A stretch of DNA of 64,000 nucleotides from Camelus dromedarius. Lineage: Eukaryota. The translations under genes and the position numbers were made by a program. Below the pieces are notes generated by a model. That model saw only the letters and a program-made list of their open reading frames with translations. It was not told where the DNA came from and ran no database searches. Position 1 is the stretch's first letter, and every line of letters starts with the position of its first letter. This document shows positions 8,426 to 48,968 of this stretch, in pieces. The stretch spans positions 6,696,001 through 6,760,000 of the forward strand of contig NC_087436.1 in NCBI RefSeq assembly GCF_036321535.1. Direction: 5' to 3'.

Positions 8426-11400
8426 AATTTTTCAAGAGCCAGGACAGTCATGTGGTTAAGGTCCAGAAGGCACGGAGTGCTGGTGCACAGCTGCAGCAGG
8501 CTCTGCGTGTCCTCACGGTGACAGGGCTCCCCGTTGTCCCCGCTCTGCAGAGGAGGGTGCTGAGCCTGGCCACGTCCTAGGCAGGGGCCGGACGAGGACT
8601 GGAACCCAGAGTCCGCACGCTTCCTCACTGCGCTGCCTCGCAGATATACACGTAAAGGTGTTTTCCACTCCAGATGGGACCATCCTTACAATGACAGCTC
8701 CTTCTAGAGATGACTCTATGCACGTATAACAAAATCCAGAGTTCTTCCCCTCGTTTTTCCTTTTTCAAAAATACATATGGTAGTGTCCTGCACACGCTGT
8801 TTTATACTTTTTTTCCAGGGCAGACGATGTCCTGGAGCTTATTCTGTAACCTCATAAGGAGCATCCTCGTCCGCTGCCCTGTCCGTATAGTGCTCTGTAG
8901 CATGGACGTGCTGTGATTTCTTTAGCCACCCCCGTGGGTGTTTGTCCCAGTCCTTTGCTGTTCCAAATGCTGCTGCAGTGGATCCCTTTTGTGTGTAATC
9001 ATTTTGGACCCTGCAGGTTGGTCTGTGGGATTAATTCCTGCAAATGGAATTGTGGGTCAAAGAGCATGTGAGTTTGTGTGTTTGTACCTCCCCCCCTTAT
9101 TTTGGCCCCTACCTCTGCCCCTCGGCCCAGCTCTGCCTCCTGCTCACCTGTACCCATCTCTTCTAAAAATAGTATTTTATAACCAGAGGTAGGTGTACGG
9201 TTTCTGTTTTTTGGCTTTCTCATTTGCAAACAAAAGACCATGTGGAGAATATCTCGCTTTTGACCCCTGGAAACCTCTAGGGGAAACCGTGATTTCTTCA
9301 TCTGTGAACGGGTTAGATGGATTGAGAATTAGTTAATACATAAGGCAGTGTCGTGACTATTTACTTCGAAATTCATTCACTCCCATGTTATTAGCAGGCA
9401 GCTTCCCTGGGTGGAGAGGAGGAGGGAACCTTGCCTTCAGGAAAAGGCACAACACCATGCTGATGGAGGTTAGCTCTCAGCAGGGCTGGAAGTCACAGCC
9501 CAGTGGTCCTGGAGCGCAGCGATGCATGCTGACTGCTGTGGTTATGCGGACGAGCGTGTGAGAGAATCAGCTCAGGGAGTACGGGATTGAGGCACACAGG
9601 GGGACGGACAGCAAGGCTGCTTAAATACAGGTGGTTTCCAGTTTCTAGATACCAGAAAAGAGTTAGTCATGCTGTTTGATGAATTAACAAACCATTTTGG
9701 AAAGCATAAGCCACTACGAGCCATACTTAGAGATTCTGTAAGATTTTAAATGGGAGAAAGGGAAGAAGGTGTAATAATGACAGCAAAACCTAGGAAGCCA
9801 GCCTCGGGCAGGATCCTGGGACACCTGCCCCCTCGGGGTCTCCCTTGCCTGGAGAGAACTTGCCCCTTTCCCCTTGAGATGTCGGCAGTGTCTTCTGAAC
9901 GTTCTACTGATCGGAGCTGTGTTCGTGTTAAGAAGCCTGCTAAGCACAGCGCCACGTCCTTCCAGGGAGGTGAGGGCGCCACGTGGGGGCGGAGATGGGT
10001 TCACGGAGGCCGCTCTCCTCCTAGGACCTGGCTGAGGTCACCTGTTCTGAAGGACACTGTGCCCACGCAGTTGACCATTTGAGATTACGGCGTGTCAGCG
10101 TCAGAAGGACACGAGCTTGAGGGATGATTCTGGCCACAGCCGTCCTTACAAAGCAGGGAGCTGGAGGGTGACTGGGCTCAGGCGCTGCCTCCTGCCTGGG
10201 AGCCGGGCGGCCTGACGTCCAGCGTGGCGCTCTGCTGGGCTGTCGCCGCCACGGTGGCCCCGGGCCGATGGTGCCGTGATGCCACACAGACTTCACCTGA
10301 ACCAGGAAGGGGGCCGGAATTTGCCTTTCCCTCTCGTGTGTGGCACCGTTCCCCGCCTGCAGCACCCAAACTTCCAGCCGTGTCGCGACTCATCGGGTTC
10401 TGTCGTTGCTGTGTGGGCGTGTTATATAAACACTGTGTGGCTCCAGCTTGTGACCTCGTGGCCACGCATAGCCCCGTCCCAGCGCGCAGAGCCCCGCCGC
10501 GAGGCACCAGCAGCCCCCACGGCCGGCGTGTTGGGACCGCGCACGTTCACGGTCACGTGGGAGACCCTGACCTTCCCTCAGACGTAGGAAGTGTTTCCCT
10601 GAGCAACAAACTCATCCTATGATCCCCAAATCCTAAACTCTCTGAAAAAACTTTTGGAACTGACCTGAACGGTTGTAAGGCTATTTGTAGTCTCTCGATA
10701 ATCCATTGAGCGTAAACGTCCATCACTTGGGCTGGTGAAATACTGACTTGTTTGGTCTGGGGGTTTGATCACACCTCAGCCCCGGAGGAGATGTTCTGTA
10801 ATACGTGGCATAAGCTTCTTTCTCAGATCAAAACAGTCTGAATGCCCAGGATCTCAGTGAAAGAATTGCGTATCTGGACTTCTCTGAGTTAGGCTGTACA
10901 GTGTTCAAAGTGCTTTCCTACTGATTTTCTGTCTTCCCAACAGCCCTGTGAGGTCGGTAAGGCAGATGCATTTGGGGAGAGCTGAGCTCCAGGGTACGGA
11001 CTCCCGAGTTCCCTGGGATGGCAGTGGCAGAGCCGGGAGCCCTGTCCACCCTGGAGGATGCTGACCATGTCCCAGGCACCGCGTCATCTGTGACCTGGAC
11101 CAGTGCCTCACCCGAGCTGGGCAGACTGACCTCTCCTTCCTCATAGAGACGTTTACCGCAGTGATGGGACAGTTTACTGACTGGTTTGTGTGTTGACCTT
11201 CCCTACCAGATTGTGAGCATCTGGAGGTAGGAGCTGGATCTGGTTGGCTTCTGTTTCTGGTGACTTTCACGGCACCGGGGTCCAGCCAGGCTCTGAGGGC
11301 AGGCATGGTCCCCGGGGCTCAGGTCTCAGGGCTCCTTCCCAGCCAGGCTGCCGACGGTCAGGATTGATTCTTTCACACCACACGTTTCTTTTACAAAAAC

Positions 11401-16966: not shown

Positions 16967-17093
16967 CTGGTCCTGTTCTGAGTTCGACCTGAATGAGATT
17001 CGCCTGATCGTTTACCAGGACTGCGAAAGGAGGGGCAGGCAAGTCTTGTTCGATTCCAAAGCTGTTCAAAAGATTGAAGAGGCAGCAGCTCAG
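16967..17093 (+). CDS. FNIP2: FNIP2 coding exon 2 (127 nt), start of longin/uDENN region
   Basis: ttaatccatag|C TGG...GCT CAG|gtatga; translates [42 protein letters not shown]. Confidence 0.95.
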
Positions 17094-17640
17094 GTATGAA
17101 ATGTGGGTTTGCTTTCATCGTTTTTGTTCATGCTGTGAGCGCCCTCGCTGAGCAGCCATGTGTTAATCCATCGTCCTCTCTTTGGGCTGTATCGTGCAGC
17201 ACCATTAATGGTTCAGAAGAAACCCAGGTGGAGCCGCCACCCCGCCCACCACGTTTGTGTTCTCACTAATACACACAGCCGAGACTGAGCAAGTGATGGT
17301 GACAGATGTAAGCAGTGTAAGTAGGTATTGCTAGAAGTGAATTTGCCGGCGAGTCACAGTCCAATAGGATTTTGGCGCCAAATACGTGCCGTGTGTAACG
17401 GGAAAAGTGAGGACTGTAAAATTCATGAAGTGTTAGCCTGAAGGGAAGGTACAGGTCATCCTGTCTGGCATTTCTCATAGATAGTAAGAGGTGTTACACA
17501 GCACTGGATTAAACAAGTAAACAGCTCTCCTCGCTACAGGGCTTCAGTGTGCCAACATGCACTGTCATCTTCGAAAGGGAGTGTGCCTCCAGCCTGTCTG
17601 ACCAAGGAAGCTTTTATTTATTTCCTCTTTTTAGTAGAGG

Positions 17641-17845
17641 GCTGGTGGTGGAGCTGGTGGAGGTGGTGGTGGTGGTGTTGGAGGTGGTGGTGGACGTGGT
17701 GGTGATGATGGTGGAGGGGATGGTGGTGGTGGAGGTGGTGGTGATGGTGGTGGAGGGGATGGTGGTGGAGGTGGAGGTGGTGGAGGTGATGATGATGACG
17801 GTGGAGGTGGTTGTGGTGTGATGGTGGTGGAGGTGGTGGTGAGCG
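17641..17845 (+). repeat. Imperfect (TGG/GGA/TGA)n trinucleotide tract
   Basis: gtggtggaggtggtggtggtg... over about 200 bp. Confidence 0.95.
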
Positions 17846-18855
17846 CGGTGTGGGTGTGGGGGGTCTGGAGCTGGGTAAAGTGAGGACAGAGCAGCTCTTG
17901 ATCCCTTGGAGCCAGAACAGAAAAAGTGGAGTGACATGTCCAGGTAGGAGCAGAGTCTGGTCCTCCCTGTGAGTCTCAGGGACATCCTCCAGAGTACTTC
18001 TTAGTTGTGGCCTTTCTAACAGTTGTTCAGAAGTCTCCAAAGTAAAAAAAAGCTTCTTGTGTGCATTCTGTTCACATTCAGTCACCTGCTGCTGTGTTGA
18101 TGGAACCCCGGCAGTGGGAGAATATGCGGCTGAGGGAGGGAATGGTCTGCATCACGGTCTCCGTCTCATCGGAGCGGAGATCTCCTCCTGCCTCTGATAA
18201 GCACCGTTTCTGCAGGAAGTGTCTGCTTAGAGGCAGCCACCTGGGCAGGCTCGGCGGGCTTTAGCGTGGGTGCCCAGCCAGGTAGCTGATCACTCCCGTA
18301 GTCGCCGGGCTTGTTAGGTGAGGTGGGGAGGCATGAGAAACCTCGTAGGTGATTCACCCAGAGGCCCTCCTGGCAGGTTGGTCTCAAAGCTGAGGTGAGC
18401 CAGGACTTGCCCGTCAGTTTGGTGAGCAGGACGTGGTTTCCCACAGCACTGCCTGTTTCCCCGAAGGCCCTGCCCAGTGGTTGACCACGCACAGGTGGAG
18501 GGAAAACAGTTCTCACCGGTTTCCAGAGGGAACCAGAACCTTCACTCTGTTGGAGCAGCGATGACCCTGGAGTCTGGAACTGAAGCTTCCTTGGAAGCTC
18601 TCAGGAATTGAAAAGACAGCTGGGTCCGGGGAGGTTTGTGACTTGCCCAGGGCTGCAGAAGGCATCCGGTCTCGGCTCTGCTCACTGTCCAGGGGCGGTT
18701 GCCGATCGTGGACCTCTTGGCAGGTTGTCCCCAGCTGGGAGCCTGGTAGCCTGGGGCGGGTGTGGACTGCCTGCCCCACCAGGCCCCTGCGGGCTGTGCT
18801 CCTGGCTTACGTGGTGCTAAGAGGCAGGCGGATCTGCAGGGGGTGAGGAGGGTGT

Positions 18856-18981
18856 GTCACGTGTTCAGGGACAGCTGTGGAGGCACTTCCTCACGTGCTT
18901 TGCCCATGTTCAACCCCTACCCCTTGGCAAGCACATGACTGCAGGCATTTGCATCCGACCACCCGTGTGACTGTCACGTGA
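18856..18981. promoter_or_regulatory. Cluster of MiT/TFE-type E-boxes (CLEAR/M-box) in intron 2; candidate enhancer
   Basis: GTCACGTG 18856, TCACGTG 18891, AGTCATGTGCT on the minus strand 18930-18940, GTCACGTGA 18973; octamer ATTTGCAT 18947. Confidence 0.6.
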
Positions 18982-19817
18982 AGATTAGATAAGCTGCGGT
19001 TGCATTCATGTTTTTCTGAGCAAAAGCTGCGTGAAGAAAAAGCAAATCAGAGTAGAAGCAACTTACCCTAGAGGGCGAGGGTGCTCCTGGGGGGAGGACT
19101 CCATTCTGGTGTGGGAGAAGCGGGGACGTTAGCAAAGGTGCGCCTTTATACCTTTGTGTCCCTGTCACAAAAGTCAGCAGCGAGCCCGTGTGGGGAGCGT
19201 GGAATAGCCAGTCCCTCCAACCCCTGACCTTTGAAGGCCAGGTGGCCGGCACACGCTGGGGCATCCAGGGGCCCCTGCTGCAGAGTTCTGGCTTCGTCTT
19301 TCCCAAGTCGACCTTGTGACTTTCTTTCCTGCGCCTTTACTGCTGCGGGAGCTGTGTCCCAAACACGGGCCTGTCTTTCCAGGTTAATAGGGGGCTTTCT
19401 CAGTTCCATCTGCTTGGTAGAAGTTTGCTTCTGAAGCAAGGGCTCTGTCCTCGTCGGTTTTGTAGATGACGACTCGACGTGGCAAAATCTCTAAGACAAG
19501 CACAGAGGGCAGACCTCATGGATGATTTTAAAATATGAATCGAAACAGAAGATATTTGAGTTACTTGAAGACAATAGTCTGCATACATAACCCGCCACCT
19601 TCTGTCTGTCCCCCTTCCTGAGTGCTCGCCTCTTCCAAGTGTTTCAGACTCTCAGGAACCATGTTTTTGTCCTTGTTAGAAAGGAAAAAACCCAAACTCT
19701 GGTTTTCTGCACAGCACAGGCACCACAGGACAGGAGGTTGTAATGAGGGAACCCCCGGTAACGCGTGTGTCGGAACCAGTATTCTTAGCGTGGCTGACCC
19801 TGCCCTCCCTCTTCCAG

Positions 19818-19946
19818 AGAGCGGAGGATGTGCCGGTGAAGGCGTCGGCCAAGTGCTGCCAGCGAGGCGGGGGCAGCAGCCTCTCTGCCCACGGTGCCCC
19901 CTGGGCGTCCGCGCAGCCGGCCAAGGAGCAGCTCCCGAAGTACCAG
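19818..19946 (+). CDS. FNIP2: FNIP2 coding exon 3 (129 nt)
   Basis: ccctcttccag|AGA...TAC CAG|gtaaca; RAEDVPVKASAKCCQRGGGSSLSAHGAPWASAQPAKEQLPKYQ; phase 0-0. Confidence 0.93.
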
Positions 19947-20391
19947 GTAACACACCCCTCCTGCCCGGAGTGCCCTGGGGCCGAGTTCAGGTACTGCCAG
20001 CTCTCCTCGGGGATGATGGCTGCTTGGCAGTTCAGCTCCAGGAATAAGAGATTAAGTGTTCAAACGCCAGTGCTGGGTCCACACGTTGGCTTTTCCCTCC
20101 CGGTAGAAGCTACTGAGCACGGGCAGCGGTGATCGGGAACAACGCAGCGCGAATGAGGAAGAAATGTTGCAGCTAGGGTGAACCCTCCTGTTTTGCTTCC
20201 TTTGCAGTCAGAACCAAATTAACACATGTGCATTTTCCAGTTTTGTTACACGAACTCTAAGGATTCTGGGATGTGTATCCTAAGAAGATAGCGCTTCCCG
20301 CTAAAAGGAAGGGAACCTTGTGTAGGAGCAGACGGAGAGGCCAGACCTACCTTGAGTGTGAAGGAGAGAGGGCTGGTGGCATTTTTCATGC

Positions 20392-40719: not shown

Positions 40720-40921
40720 GTCCACAGACGAAACGTTCAGCTTGGCCGAGGAGAGCTGCAGCTCGAACCCGGCCATCGTGCGGAGGAAGAAGATCGCCGT
40801 CAGCATCATCTTCTCCCTGTGCGAGAGGGAGGAGGCGCAGCGGGATTTCCAGGACTTCTTTTTCTCTCACTTCCCGCTGTTTGAATCTCACATGAACAGG
40901 CTGAAGAGTGCCATTGAAAAG
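40720..40921 (+). CDS. FNIP2: FNIP2 coding exon 9 (202 nt)
   Basis: ccttcctccag|G TCC...GAA AAG|gtactg; [67 protein letters not shown]. Confidence 0.96.
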
Positions 40922-41232
40922 GTACTGAGACCGTAAGCCGTCGTCCAGTGGAGACACGGTCACGGGGCTCGCGAGGTGGTGGGGGCTCTAGGCACCACAT
41001 CCCTTTCGCGGGGAACATGACTCGTCCAGCAGGGCTGGACCCGTGGGCACCGTGGTGTTAGGTGCCAGCTGCTGGATGGCTTGGGGAAAGGAAATCCCTT
41101 CTCCTGTCACCATCAGTCATTGCTACCTGGGGTGTTGACTATAACATCGTCTCTTACTAGTGAAGCCCTGTAGATGGTTACGAAGGAATTTCTCCTCCAA
41201 GGGTCATGTGGTTTGTTTTCTCTTCAACGAAG

Positions 41233-41321
41233 GCCATGATCTCCTGTAGGAAGATAGCAGAGTCAAGTCTCCGCGTCCAGTTCTACGTCGGCCGGCTGAT
41301 GGAAGCACTGGGGGAGTTCAG
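41233..41321 (+). CDS. FNIP2: FNIP2 coding exon 10 (89 nt)
   Basis: ttcaacgaag|GCC...TTC AG|gtaaac; [30 protein letters not shown]. Confidence 0.94.
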
Positions 41322-41409
41322 GTAAACTGGCAGCACCCAGGGAGCCCAGCAGGGGACAGGACAAGCCGCAGCAGGGCAGCTGCGGCTCTCAGGACGTTCC
41401 CACCGCAGC

Positions 41410-42290
41410 TGTGAGGGCTGCCTTTCCTCCACACTGTTGCCAACGCTTGTTATTTCTTTTCTGTTTGATGATGGCCATTCTGACAGATGTGGGGTGGTGT
41501 CTTATTGTGGATTTGAGTTGCATTTCCCTGATGTTTAGTGATGTTGAGCATCTTTTCATGTGCCTGTTGGCCATCTGCATTTCCTCTTTGGAAAAATGTC
41601 TGTTCAGGCGCTCTTCCCATTTTTTAATTGGATTGTGTCTCTTTTTTTTTTTTAATTGAGCTGCATGAGCTGTTTATATAATTTGGATATTAACCACTTA
41701 TTGGTCATATCATTACAAATATTTTCTTCCATTCATTAGGTTGTCTTTTCATTTTGTCGATGGTTTCCTTTGCTGTGCAAAAAGATTTTGAGTTTTATTA
41801 GGTCCCATTTGTTTATTTTTGTTTTTATTTCTTTTGCTTTTAGGAGATGGATCCAAAAAAAAATATTGCTGTGATGTAGGTCAAAGAGTTTTCTGCCTAT
41901 GTTTTCCTGTAGGAGTTTTAGAGTATCCGGTGTAACATTTAGGTCTTTAATCCATTATGAGTCTATTTTTGTATCTGGTGTTAGAGAATGTTCTAATTTC
42001 AGTCTTTTACAGGTAGCTGTCCAGTTTTCCCAGCACTGCTTATTGAAGAGACTATCTTTTCTCTGTTGTATATTCTTGCCTCCTTAGTCGTAGCTTAATT
42101 GACCATAAGTGCATGGGTTTATTTCTGGACTTTCTGTCCTGTTCCATTGATCTATGTGTCTTTTTTTGTGCCAGTGCCATGCTGTTTTGATTACTGTAGA
42201 TTCAGAGCCTGAAAAGTCAGGGAGTGTAATTCCTCCAGCTCCTTTCGTCTTTTTCAAAATTGTTTTGGCTTCTCAAGATCTTTTGTGTTT
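41410..42290 (-). mobile_element. L1 ORF2 C-terminal fragment
   Basis: Antisense ORF MQMANRHMKRCSTSLNIREMQLKSTIRHH is the L1 ORF2 cysteine-rich region. Confidence 0.88.
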
Positions 42291-42384
42291 CTTCCTTTGT
42301 TCTGACACAAAGCATTGTGAAAACAAAATTTTTTAAGAATGAGCATTTTATATGAAGAGTTACTATACTCTCTCTGTAGAGGGT

Positions 42385-42538
42385 CTCTGTCACTGCTGCT
42401 TAACTTTGCCATTGTGCAAAAGCAACAATAGATACTGTGGAAATGGTTGCACATGGCTGTGTTCCAATAAAACTTTATTTACAGAAAGCTGGCAGTCAAG
42501 TCAGATCTGGCCTGTGCATCCTAGTTTACTGACCCCTG
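42385..42538 (+). mobile_element. MER58-like hAT-Charlie MITE fragment
   Basis: tggctgtgttccaataaaactttatttacag...tagtttactgacccctg. Confidence 0.7.
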
Positions 42539-42669
42539 TTTTATATACTGCTTTGGATCCCTTGGGGCTACATAAATCCAGATTACTGTTTTCTTCTTTA
42601 TTCCTTTGCATAAAGATTCTCCGAAGTAATGTCTGTGACAGTTCTGGGTCACCCTTCTCTCCTCTGCAG

Positions 42670-42816
42670 AGGGACCATCTGGAACTTGTATTCTGTCCCG
42701 AGGATCACAGAACCGGTGTGGCTCACCATGATGTCCAGCACTTTGGAGAAAACGCAGCTCTGCCAGCGCTTCCTCAAGGAGTTTACCCTCCTGATAGAGC
42801 AGATCAACAAGAACCA
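42670..42816 (+). CDS. FNIP2: FNIP2 coding exon 11 (147 nt)
   Basis: ctcctctgcag|A GGG...AAC CA|gtaagc; [49 protein letters not shown]. Confidence 0.96.
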
Positions 42817-42940
42817 GTAAGCGTTGGCTCCCTGGAGCCCGGGATGCGCGTGCAGTGGCCGGTGCCTGTGCTGAACCTGACGCCGTGCCGCGCCTCCGCG
42901 GCCCTGACTCTCCCGCTGCCCCCTTTCCTGTTCTGCCCAG

Positions 42941-43110
42941 GTTCTTCGCTGCCTTGCTGACCGCCGTGTTAACCTACCACCTGGCCTGGGTCCCGACTGT
43001 CATGCCAGTGGACCACCCTCCCATCAGGGCTTTCTCAGAGAAGCGCACCTCTCAGCTGGTGAACACGCTGGCCAAGACACACCCGTATAACCCTCTCTGG
43101 GCGCAGCTGG
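42941..43110 (+). CDS. FNIP2: FNIP2 coding exon 12 (170 nt)
   Basis: ttctgcccag|G TTC...CTG G|gtcagt; [56 protein letters not shown]. Confidence 0.96.
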
Positions 43111-43307
43111 GTCAGTACCGACGTGACTCTTCAGAGCCCATGTGGGATGGGTTGGGGAAATGCTGGAGAGTTTAGCTGATGTCGGCCACGCAGCCTGGCC
43201 ATCCAAGGTTGTCCTTGGGCAGGCAGGGAAGTGGCCCTGGGAGCCTACCTGTAAAACATCCCCTTCCTCCCCTCCCACTGCCGGCAGCGTCCTTCTGCTC
43301 TTTAAAG

Positions 43308-43529
43308 TGGGGTTTCTTAACTTCGGCACTCTGGATACGTGGACCGGATCATTCTTGGGTGGGTGGGTGGTGGAGGGGCTTGTCCTGTGCCTGGAGACTG
43401 AACACTGCATCACTGGCCTGTGCTCACCAGCGGCCCAGGAAAACCCCTCGTAAATGTCTCCAGACACCGCTGAGTGTTCCCCCCACCCCCCGTGCAGGGT
43501 GCAAAACACCCCCTGGCTGAGAACCGCTG
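43308..43529 (+). mobile_element. MER20 hAT-Charlie MITE
   Basis: tttcttaacttcggcact...tgtcctgtgc...aaatgtctccagacac...gcaaaacaccccctggctgagaaccgctg; flanking ctttaaag / ccctagag. Confidence 0.8.
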
Positions 43530-46500
43530 CCCTAGAGGATGGACTGCGTAGGAGAAAAGTGAGAGAAAAGAAAGTAACACACTCTGTGATTTCACCCCCT
43601 TTTAAATCTGAGCTGAAGTCAGAAACCCCGTCTTTTCCACACTGCTCTGCTCAGTGCTGGTGGTTTTTATGTCCTCTAGGCTTTGGGCTCAGAGGGGTTG
43701 CAGGGACCTGACGCCCCAGCGTGGCTGGTCAGAGTGTGGACTTGGGAGACCAGAGCTCATGTGCAGGAGAGGTGTGCTCCGGGGCCTCACCTGGCACACG
43801 TCTGCAGTGAGCAAGGCAGGCCTGCACAGCTGCTCTGTTCCAGACCCTATCCCTCCGCTGGGCCCAGGGGTGCAGAGCTGGGTCACGTGCAGCTCAGCCT
43901 CGGGAAGCCTGCAGCCTGATGGAGGAGGCGCAGGTGGTATTCAGAACATCCTGGTTGCTCCTTCGCTAGGGGTGTGTGATGGACATGAGAGACAATGCAG
44001 TGGAGAGGGCAGGACGTGGGCAGCAGGGCCAGACTGCCTGGACCCAAATCCAGCCTTCATGGGCAAGTGCCTCTTCACCTGTAAAATGCTAGTTCATGGT
44101 CACCAGGGGAGGTAAACCAGTTAACGCTGGGAGCACCTTGGTCATGGATGCTGTGCTGAGGATGTTATGAGGGGGCTCCGAGAGACGGGGGTGGGGTGGG
44201 GAGGGGGCTTTCAAGGAAGACATGCTTGAGGAAGTCGTAAAGTGGCATTCTCCAGAAACAGAATTGCAGACAAGCACTTGAATGCCAGGAAACAGTGTGT
44301 TACAGTAGTAATGCAAGCCATCCCTGGGAGCCATGCATGGCTCCAGGTGCCTTTTGCATGTGTTAATTCATTAGATTCTCATTTTAGACCTGCTAGTGTG
44401 TCCTCACCAGACGGTAGGTAATGAAGATGCCTTTCCCTGTGCCCTGAGTCGTGAGGTTGTGAGGTGGGGACTACATGTCCATCCTTAGGGGATCACAGGT
44501 GAAAAGCAGCTTTTCTCCTCAAAAAGGGTTTGATATTATTGGCTTAAGTTAATGCAAGTTAAACAGTCTCAGATTTTGTCTTCATTTTTTTTTCCTCCAG
44601 AAGTTTAAGTTGTATTTTCCAGAATGCAGTGGAATTAGACTGCAGATCAATTTTTTTAAATGACCAGGAGACAATTCCCACCTGCTCAGAAAATCAACAG
44701 CCATATTTAAATAACCCACAAGCCAAATGAGAGAAATAAGAAAACAGTTTGAACTAAGGGATAACAAAGAGACGGTGAATGACAGCGTGCAGGACTAGCG
44801 AAGCACTGTCCGAAGGGGGCTTGGTCGCCCTGACGCGTCTATGAGATGAAACAGTGAAATAGACACGTCTGTGATCAGCGGCCAATTAGGACCAAGCTCC
44901 TCTCTTTGTCTCCTGTTTTCTCAGCCCCCCATTCCCGCCATCCCCTGTACCCTCTCGATTTGTGTCCTGAGCGCTTCTCCCTCCCTCCCCTGTCTTGTTC
45001 TCTTGTCTCTAGTTTGTTTCTTCTCTTTTCCCTCCTGCTCCCTGTGATCTTATCCGGGGTGTGTTTCACCCTCCCTGCCCACCTCACCCTCTTTTTGCTC
45101 CTCCGTCTCCTCCCCTCTCTGTTATTTCTCTGTCTTCTCTTCACCCTCCCTGCCCCGTGCCACCCCTCCCCCACACCTGTGTCCCCCTGTCCCCGTCCAT
45201 CTGTCCTGCCCCTTCTTGCTTCCATGCACTCCGGGTTTTGGACTCTCTCTGTTTCACCTGCACACACTCTTTTTACCCCTTCCTTTCTTCTCATTGAGTT
45301 GCCTTTCCACAGTGAGGTGGTTTGGGTTTTTTTTTGTTTTTTGCTAGATTTGGGATATGTAATACTTCTTTATTAACACTGGGACTGATTTAACAACGGC
45401 ACCCCAGGAAGTCCTGAGGTGGCCGTGAGTCCCCACAATGATGGGCAGATGTGATCACAGGAAGTAACAGCAATAAATCCTTAGTCAAGCAAGTTTTCCT
45501 GAATGGAAGTGCCTGTCCTCGCATCAGATGACAATTCTGAGTTACTCTTTTGAATTCTTGGGTGATTTTTCAGTCAGTTGCAAAAGCCTCAGAGATGAAG
45601 TTCTATTAGCTGTGACTTGGTCCTTTTGTAGAGAGGATGGTTTCATATCACTTCCGTCCCACCCTTTACCTGTTCTCTAGAGCCCTACCCCAGGGAATCT
45701 TTTCCAGAGGAGGCACTTCTAGGGGGATCCTCTCCCTTTCTCTCGGTTTGCAACTTGGCGATTAGTTTTATCCAGTATATGCCGCATAAATGCCTCCCCT
45801 CCTCTCTCGGATGGAGTCCAACTCCCTGAGTTCTTATTTATAACTGTTACCATGTATCTCTGCTCCTTTATTTAGAATCCTTTCACTTTTTGATCTATTG
45901 CAATATCCTGATTAATCCCACGTGGTTTCTGACTCAGGGATGATTATGCAGAGATGTAAACAAGATAAATCCGTGTAAAACATGAAACACTCAGCAGTGC
46001 TCCTGTGCAGTCAGTAAGTGTTGGCTTTTGGTTGTAATTGTCAATAATAATAATAGCAGAGCATCAAAGGTGCAGCTGTCAAGTGTAACATTCCGATTAT
46101 CAAAAGCACTCCTTTTGATAGGCAGGCACGTGACAGGCACTTGTGAGGAGAAGCCGCGCTGCTGGGTTGCTCCACACATTGGCCTTTCTTCTTCCACCTG
46201 TAAGCTGAGTGTCCGTGGTTCATTAGCCAGTTTCTAATGAGTGTGTCAGGGTATAACTTGTGGGACATTGTTTTCCAGTAGAATTTTCCTGTGAAGTAAT
46301 AGGAAAAAATTCAGATTCATTATTTACAACTAAGTGAGTTTCTTCTACTTGGTGTGCGTGTGCAGTGAGCAGACCGTTTCATTAAGCATTCTGAACTGAT
46401 CCACTGCACTTCTCTTCAGAGATCCCGGCATTGGGATTTCACGCCGAGGCCTACTGTCCTGGGAGTCTTCTAAAGAGATCTCATTCTAGTCCCAAGATAA

Positions 46501-46842: not shown

Positions 46843-47021
46843 GCAGGCCTTCCCAGGCAGACTTTCCATCCTAGAGGAAAACTGAAATACCGTCAGCGCT
46901 CAGAATTGCCTCTTTGCCTCAGTCAGGGGAGTGAAGCAGCGATTCCGGGTTTCAGGCTGACGTGCCCTTGACTCGATCACCCAGATGACTGTCCCTTGTG
47001 TCGGTCTGCTCTGCCCTCCAG

Positions 47022-48198
47022 GCGATCTGTACGGAGCCATCGGCTCTCCAGTGAGGCTGACGCGCACGGTGGTGGTGGGGAAGCAGAAGGACTTGGTCCA
47101 GCGCATCCTGTACGTCCTGACCTACTTCCTGCGCTGCTCCGAGCTGCAAGAGAACCAGCTGACTTGGGGCGGGCCCCCCGGCGAGGCCGACCAGGTGCTG
47201 AACGGGTGCAGCATCACCACAGCCTTGGAGAGGGGGCAGGTGGAGGAGTCTGAGTACGTGGTGGTCACAGTGCGGAGCGAGCCGGCCCTGCTGCCGCCCA
47301 TCCTGCCCCCGACCGCGCCTGAGGGGCTCCCGGAGGGCTCTGACCTGTGTCCCGTGCTTGACAGAGAAGGGAGCCTGAGGCCTGAGCAGAGTCCCGAGGC
47401 CGGCGGCGCGGGGTCCCCAGCGCCAGCCCTGGACGGCGCCGGGCATCCTCCGGGCGCGACGGGTGGGGATGCAGAGAGTGAACACGAGGCCCCGCAGGGC
47501 GGCGCTGCCAGGCTCTCGGGCTGTGCGGGCTCGGCGGCGGGACCGAAGATGGGCCCACGCGCGGCAGGCGAGGAGCTGAGGCCCGAGATGCCTAGGAAGC
47601 TGCCGGAGCGCTCCGCGGCCAGGCCGTGCCCCGACAGGCCTTCCCGGGAGCCGCCGCCCCGGGAGAAGGTCACCTTCCACATTGGAAGCTCCGTGTCGCC
47701 AGAGTCGGACTTTGAAAGTCGCACCCAGAGGATGGAGGAGCGGCTGAAGGCCTGCGGACGGGGCCTGGAGCCGGCGCGGTGGCCCTCGGCCGGGTGCAGG
47801 GCGGCCGCCGACGCGGCCCGGGACCAGTGGGCGCCCGGGTGCTCCTGCGGGCCTGGCTTCCCGCCCTCCGAGGACTGCGGGGGTGCTTCCGGGACCCGCA
47901 GCGTCAGGACCGGGGGTGCGGAGGATGACGCCGCGTGCGCACCTGCGCCGGGCGCGGACGGGCCCTGGCCCCAACAGGGCCCCAGCGCGTGTGGCCCGCG
48001 GGACGCTGTCCCCCATGGGGACGCCGGCTTCAGGGTGGAAGGAAACATCCCCAGGAACGAGAGCTCGGACAGCGCCCTCGGGGACAGTGACGACGAGGCG
48101 TGCGCTTCCGCCTCCCCGCTTCTGGATCCCGGCGGCGCCGGGGACCACGACCCCGACCGGATGGAAGGGTCCCTGGAGGTGGAGCTGCCGCTGCCCAG
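47022..48198 (+). CDS. FNIP2: FNIP2 large coding exon 13 (1177 nt): end of the DENN core plus a disordered linker
   Basis: ctgccctccag|GC GAT...CCC AG|gtaaca; [20 protein letters not shown]...EESEYVVV (LIR-type motif)...[18 protein letters not shown]...[15 protein letters not shown]...EVELPLPR; corresponds to ORF 46985..48202. Confidence 0.96.
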
Positions 48199-48968
48199 GT
48201 AACACGGGTAGGAACAGAAGGCGTGGCTCAGGGGCGGTTCCTGGGACGAACATCCCGCGTTTTTGCCGCTGTGCGCTGTGTTGCGGGTCAGGGTTGCGTT
48301 CTCGAAGGTTGGGGCCTGCCCTTCCTCTGGGAACGATGGGGGATTAGAGCAGCCGAGCCGTAAGACAGGCGGCCGGCAGGGCCTTTGCGGCTCTTGAGAC
48401 GTTTGGGGGAAGTAAGGGACGGATGCGGTGGCTTTGGGGAGCGGGGAGGGCCATCTCCCGTCGCGCCTCAGTGGTGGCGGGTCACACCCCGCCGCCTGCA
48501 GCCGGAGCAGTGTGAAGGGGCCGGGAAGCACCACCTCTTCATAACACTGTGGCAGGTCGGCGGTTTGGTCTGTGGGGCCCGGAGCCGGAAGCAGAGATCG
48601 CTGTGTTCCGCCCTGTCCTGGACGGATGTGCAGCTGTGTCCAGCTCCCAAAGCCAGGCTTGGCAAGAGCCCCTGGGGAGACTTCCCCTTTCTTGCCTGCT
48701 GGTGATGTGCTGTGTGAGGCACAGGAACAGACTCAACCAGCTGTCAGAATGCTTGTTTTTTCCTGCTCTTCCCCTTTAAGGAAACCCTTCTTCCTCTACA
48801 CTCCTTTCCTTTTGTGGCAGGCGCACCAATGCCCCGCTTTCTGGAGGGGTCCCGATGGGAACCACCTGAATCCATCTTCTTACCCGCACCCCCTGGGGTT
48901 CAGGCCCAGCGGCAGTGCGAGAAGGGGCACTCGCTGGTCGTGTGTTCTAACAGCTGGTGTCGTCCTAG

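Follow-up and report, generated by a model that had tools for sequence, protein, structure and literature searches.

Four MiT/TFE-type E-boxes clustered in FNIP2 intron 2 of the dromedary: a candidate feedback enhancer

MiT/TFE feedback through FNIP2

The MiT/TFE transcription factors take part in a feedback exerted through the Rag machinery, in which they induce targets (RRAGD, FLCN and FNIP1/2) that control their own phosphorylation by mTORC1, and the FLCN-FNIP2, RagC/D and mTORC1 steps of this pathway are established. Neither the loop nor FNIP2 gene-body enhancers are new, both having human and mouse precedents, and the preliminary description of the DNA studied here was right to suppose that MiT/TFE control of FNIP2 had already been reported: activation, loop and gene-body enhancers are all in print. 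FNIP2 is upregulated in FLCN-knockout stem cells, where it is flagged as a Tfe3 target (PMC6367455), induced Tfe3 binding at Fnip2 regulatory regions has been described in mouse cells (PMC13049674), and the induction of fnip2 in zebrafish is AMPK-dependent (PMC6902666). FNIP2 is also listed, without coordinates, four times in Table S1 of one study (PMC7427332) and three times as co-bound by MITF and BRG1 in another (PMC4407272), and unspecified enhancers in its gene body lose H3K27ac in MITF-KO (PMC11257520); another melanoma paper emphasises the FNIP2 isoform-2 promoter. Most binding sites are common to MITF, TFEB and TFE3 (bioRxiv 2024.12.23.629393). One further report (PMC9649702) was set aside as an account of this loop, as it describes a different feedback. 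A literature search that covered few subscription papers returned no dissection, reporter or deletion test of an FNIP2 intron-2 element.

The closest described element comes from human cells. An HA-MITF table for 501Mel cells places two FNIP2 peaks in intron 1 and a third in intron 2 (PMC7857731 supplementary file 4), the third at chr4:159,748,381-159,749,843 (hg19; 1,463 bp; tagged MITF in one cell line), whereas the COLO829 MITF table of the same study holds a single FNIP2 peak, in intron 1, and none in intron 2. A peak in human intron 2 is present in one of these two tables. The cluster reported here shares with the MITF-bound human gene-body enhancers (PMC11257520, PMC7857731) its gene, its intron number and the factor family predicted from its motifs, but lies in another species, and its match to the human peak is by intron number only.

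We analysed a window of 64,000 nucleotides of Camelus dromedarius contig NC_087436.1, in which the cluster is probably an intragenic MiT/TFE-responsive enhancer of FNIP2. When mTORC1 phosphorylation of TFEB/TFE3 drops, or where MITF is constitutively nuclear, MiT/TFE dimers would occupy three or four of its boxes, open the chromatin and, jointly with elements in intron 1, boost FNIP2 transcription; the additional FLCN-FNIP2 would activate RagC/D, through which mTORC1 would send TFEB/TFE3 back to the cytoplasm, closing a negative feedback. We infer binding to the cluster in this species, its action on FNIP2 and its equivalence to the human peak. Compared with the known Rag-machinery feedback, the locus contributes a candidate cis-element and no new component or step; with the loop already known, the gain is one of resolution. 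It offers a target of about 130 bp in which to dissect how TFEB, TFE3 and MITF induce their own inhibitor, of relevance to Birt-Hogg-Dube disease, TFE3-fusion kidney cancer and melanoma state switching.

The E-box cluster in intron 2

The gene context was established from translated matches to human FNIP2 and from RNA contigs of four runs of relatives. The short interspersed repeats of the window appear to be of a camelid type.

16967..17093, plus strand: FNIP2 exon 2 (translation corresponds to human FNIP2 residues 37-78, E 6e-21; AG/GT ends)
17094..19817, plus strand: FNIP2 intron 2, 2,724 bp (exon 2 and exon 3 joined in RNA contigs of all four runs)
19818..19946, plus strand: FNIP2 exon 3 (aligned to human residues 80-127, E 9e-7; RNA contigs spliced on both sides)

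Because the exon 2 peptide matches FNIP1 at only E 7e-10, the gene is FNIP2 and not FNIP1, and because the RNA contigs of every run join exon 2 to exon 3, the intron holding the cluster is intron 2, confirming its earlier placement; the join of exon 3 to exon 4 is present in two of the four runs. The cluster begins 1.8 kb beyond exon 2 and occupies 65-69% of the way along the intron.

18856..18863, plus strand: site 1, GTCACGTG, MiT/TFE- and USF-type; variant-free in all three covering runs
18872..18877, no strand assigned: CAGCTG E-box, a common motif whose role is without evidence
18891..18897, plus strand: site 2, TCACGTG; 18895 G>A in two of three covering runs
18930..18940, minus strand: site 3, exact 11-bp M-box AGTCATGTGCT, unique in the window; variant-free in all three covering runs
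18947..18954, minus strand: octamer (POU-type) ATTTGCAT, one of five copies in the window
18973..18981, plus strand: site 4, GTCACGTGA, full 8-bp CLEAR box; 18975 C>T in all three covering runs

Four T/A-flanked CAYGTG boxes thus lie within 126 bp (18856-18981), with cores starting at 18858, 18892, 18932 (minus strand) and 18975 and spacings of 34, 40 and 43 bp. Every motif named in the preliminary description, including the exact M-box, the octamer and CAGCTG, was found where it had been placed. We take site 3 to be an M-box on the basis of the 11-mer consensus, and the octamer might have a POU-type role, judged from its letters. The CAGCTG hexamer has 104 matches in the window on both strands, corresponding to about 52 sites, with 0.57 matches expected per 350 bp. 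The full 10-mer consensus, GTCACGTGAC, is matched by none of the four sites, which carry one to three mismatches each, and TCACGTGA occurs a single time in the window, within site 4.

Measured against the published CLEAR consensus TCACGTGA and the M-box (PMC7427332; bioRxiv 2024.12.23.629393), sites 1, 2 and 4 are CACGTG with a 5'T, site 4 presents the full 8-mer and site 3 is of the M-box type; all four sites also agree with the MITF binding rule of CACGTG or CATGTG with a 5'T and/or 3'A (PMC7427332). The cluster has no second copy elsewhere in the window, and tandem duplication was ruled out as its origin, with no repeat family spanning the boxes. Classical CLEAR elements are found near promoters and transcription starts, whereas this cluster sits in intron 2, over 18 kb into the gene, and combines cores of both types, CACGTG and CATGTG. 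As far as motifs can tell, it is probably functional and CLEAR/M-box-like in action, but not promoter-proximal.

The same letters admit other occupants. BHLHE40 prefers TCACGTGA, and the element might be held mainly by USF1/2, or by BHLHE40/41 at that motif, setting or repressing basal FNIP2 expression while MiT/TFE factors merely compete; sites 1 and 4 carry GTCACGTG, the motif of most USF2-bound regions, at which USF2 competes with TFEB (PMC11436898). We regard this account as quite unlikely, in view of site 3, a CATGTG M-box with a 5'T that bears an MITF-type signature and is variant-free in the relatives, and of the MITF peak in human intron 2.

To assess the clustering, three motif definitions were used: T-flanked sites (strict; 25 in the window), the 5'T-and/or-3'A rule (30 sites) and any CAYGTG core (79 sites). 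With the strict definition, four cores fell within 117 bp in 50 of 200,000 uniform placements, in none of 400 order-3 Markov simulations and, for such a cluster, in none of 5,000 local dinucleotide shuffles of 17860-19817; under the flank rule a four-site cluster appeared in 56 of 100,000 placements. The motif cluster is real and non-random under these two definitions. The strength of this result hinges on the motif definition, since P rises to 0.03 (1,497 of 50,000) with the loosest motif, and the definition was chosen post hoc, once the cluster had been noticed. Three sites within 74 bp are themselves uncommon (1,538 of 100,000 placements). The accompanying statement that such sites occur only singly elsewhere needs a small correction, as a pair at 43758 and 43884 lies 126 bp apart; it is part of a more dispersed group, spanning 40889-43889, whose flanked E-boxes lie at 40889, 41205, 41557, 43758 and 43884.

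These figures bear on a second alternative, in which the cluster, set in a GC-rich intron, arose by chance or is decaying and hardly affects FNIP2, and the true MiT/TFE input is the isoform-2 promoter in intron 1 together with its neighbour. At the observed density about 7-14 chance clusters would be expected in an assumed genome of 2.4 Gb, the loose-motif P is only 0.03, and intron-1 MITF peaks are present in both human tables. Chance would, however, seldom place a cluster in an intron that has an MITF peak in human and whose gene is a known target of MiT/TFE, and we consider this alternative unlikely.

Site variation in close relatives and distant homologs

Four RNA runs of relatives (out of 24), with word shares of 0.56-0.78, were compared with the window over 17860-20380. 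Three of them cover the cluster; the gap in the fourth (X19) carries no evidential weight, and intron coverage in these runs may derive from pre-mRNA or DNA. Over these 2,521 bp the four runs show substitutions at 23 sites, plus a single deletion of 2 bp. Sites 1 and 3 are invariant in the three covering runs. At site 2, the change from G in the window to A in two of the three relatives (18895) converts CACGTG to a weaker CATGTG-type core with the flank retained, and at site 4 the change from C to T (18975) destroys the core in all three, with both alleles present in one run. The claimed four-site architecture is not stable: sites 1 and 3 are free of variants, but in close relatives site 4 has lost its core and site 2 is weaker.

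The 24 core bases are hit by two of the 23 substitutions, against a flat expectation of 0.22 (P = 0.020) and a CpG-aware expectation of 0.43 (P = 0.069), and variant density is 3 per 126 bp inside the cluster versus 20 per 2,395 bp outside. Ten of the 23 variants fall on CpGs and the CpG ratio near the cluster is 0.41, not above the window's 0.48, which together suggest germline methylation. Both the loss of site 4, the best site, in every covering run and the higher variant density inside the cluster favor chance or decay, and the core-base variants argue in part against tight constraint on a four-site design, on tiny counts. Weighing the other way, besides the small numbers, is the tolerated nature of one of the two changes in the cores. 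Three sites survive under the broad flank rule with both alternative alleles, and for an MiT/TFE-responsive enhancer with redundant sites the turnover of single sites would be permissible. MITF affinity for the M-box is about 11-fold below that for the full CLEAR box (PMC7427332). Site turnover between close relatives is the sole mildly new aspect of the locus, and their natural alleles provide a cheap test of site function.

Scans with the exon 2 peptide matched 10 of 565 candidate stretches in metagenome contigs, none of 442 in genome contigs and none of 26 in viral contigs. The one homolog compared, L001 (83% identity; nine others, 40-49% identical, were left out), contains an FNIP2 exon 2 homolog with flanking introns (L001 5001-6774) on a metagenome contig of 39% GC, and is probably from a non-mammalian vertebrate, apparently as host DNA within the metagenome. 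Its first intron bases agree with those of the window, and the approximately 1.6 kb following its exon 2, which would be the whole intron if the plausible acceptor at its end is used, contain no flanked site and no alignable intron sequence.

An antisense 5' end and neighbouring sequence

A contig of run X19 stops 21 bp to the left of site 1.

18835, minus strand: candidate capped antisense 5' end, enhancer-RNA-like (one contig, run X19 of a relative)

The contig ends there in 40 loose letters (30 displayed), which on the minus strand correspond to a 5' single-cell template-switch oligo, one extra G and 26 letters, presumably a barcode and UMI given their length. The extra G is unencoded, the minus strand of the genome having a C at this position, and the start context, with C before the start and A at it, resembles the initiator consensus. 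An unencoded G is a mark of the cap, and strand invasion is recognized by an edit distance under 3 (PMC10636040); with an edit distance of 10, strand invasion was ruled out as the cause of this end. The evidence consists of one contig, apparently of one molecule, from a run with no library record, and contigs cannot show starts; it provides a weak hint of enhancer transcription. No sense-strand partner was seen in the RNA contigs of the four runs, and a sense loose end at 18171 in run X18 was rejected as capped, its Gs being matched by the genome.

This end also raises a third alternative, that the cluster is an MiT/TFE-driven promoter of a stable antisense RNA starting at 18835 or of a short FNIP2 isoform from intron 2. 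Together with the cap-like end and its initiator-like context, the leftward extension of the X19 contig over at least 976 bp from 18835 (depth 16.5) and a polyA hexamer on the minus strand at 17622 are consistent with it. It rests, however, on that single contig; in the contigs of all four runs there are no new joints at exon 3 and the loose ends before it are all exon 2, so that no new first exon is joined to exon 3, a TATA motif is absent from 18750-19100, and there are no Rfam matches in 17000-20000. We judge this promoter highly improbable.

The intragenic enhancer remains the preferred reading, and a more specific form of it, which we consider improbable though worth stating, is that a transcribed MiT/TFE enhancer determines the gain with which the TFEB/TFE3-FNIP2 feedback operates, with its strongest site differing between very close relatives and segregating in at least one sample. 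If so, starvation would induce FNIP2 to different levels from natural alleles with four sites and with three, providing a ready test of how the hold of this feedback over lysosomal and fasting responses evolves.

Several further features of the gene were recorded. About 1 kb to the left of the cluster, intron 2 contains an imperfect TGG repeat of approximately 67 copies (17643-17841), which is G-rich and may form triplex or G4-like structures. In intron 1, GTCACGTG occurs at 866-873, 18.0 kb upstream of the cluster, and a human intron-1 MITF peak shared by the two tables precedes the intron-2 peak by 17.5 kb (PMC7857731); the former is possibly the counterpart of the latter, although such sites are frequent enough for this to arise by chance. 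A CpG-richer patch at 10001-10600 (37 CpG in 500 bp, 64% GC), which holds GTCACGTG at 10552 and, near 10423, a TATA-like sequence, is a possible intron-1 regulatory element. Contigs running from exon 3 into intron 3 (19917-20380) have depths of 22 in run X16 and 47 in X18, compared with 30 and 8, respectively, for intron 2; contig depth is unreliable, and the X18 pattern could reflect retained intron-3 sequence. Finally, the large FNIP2 exon at 46961-48343 is very rich in GC and CpG (73% GC and 106 CpG in 47001-48000), and the long antisense open reading frames that overlap it are likely a by-product of this GC-biased composition.
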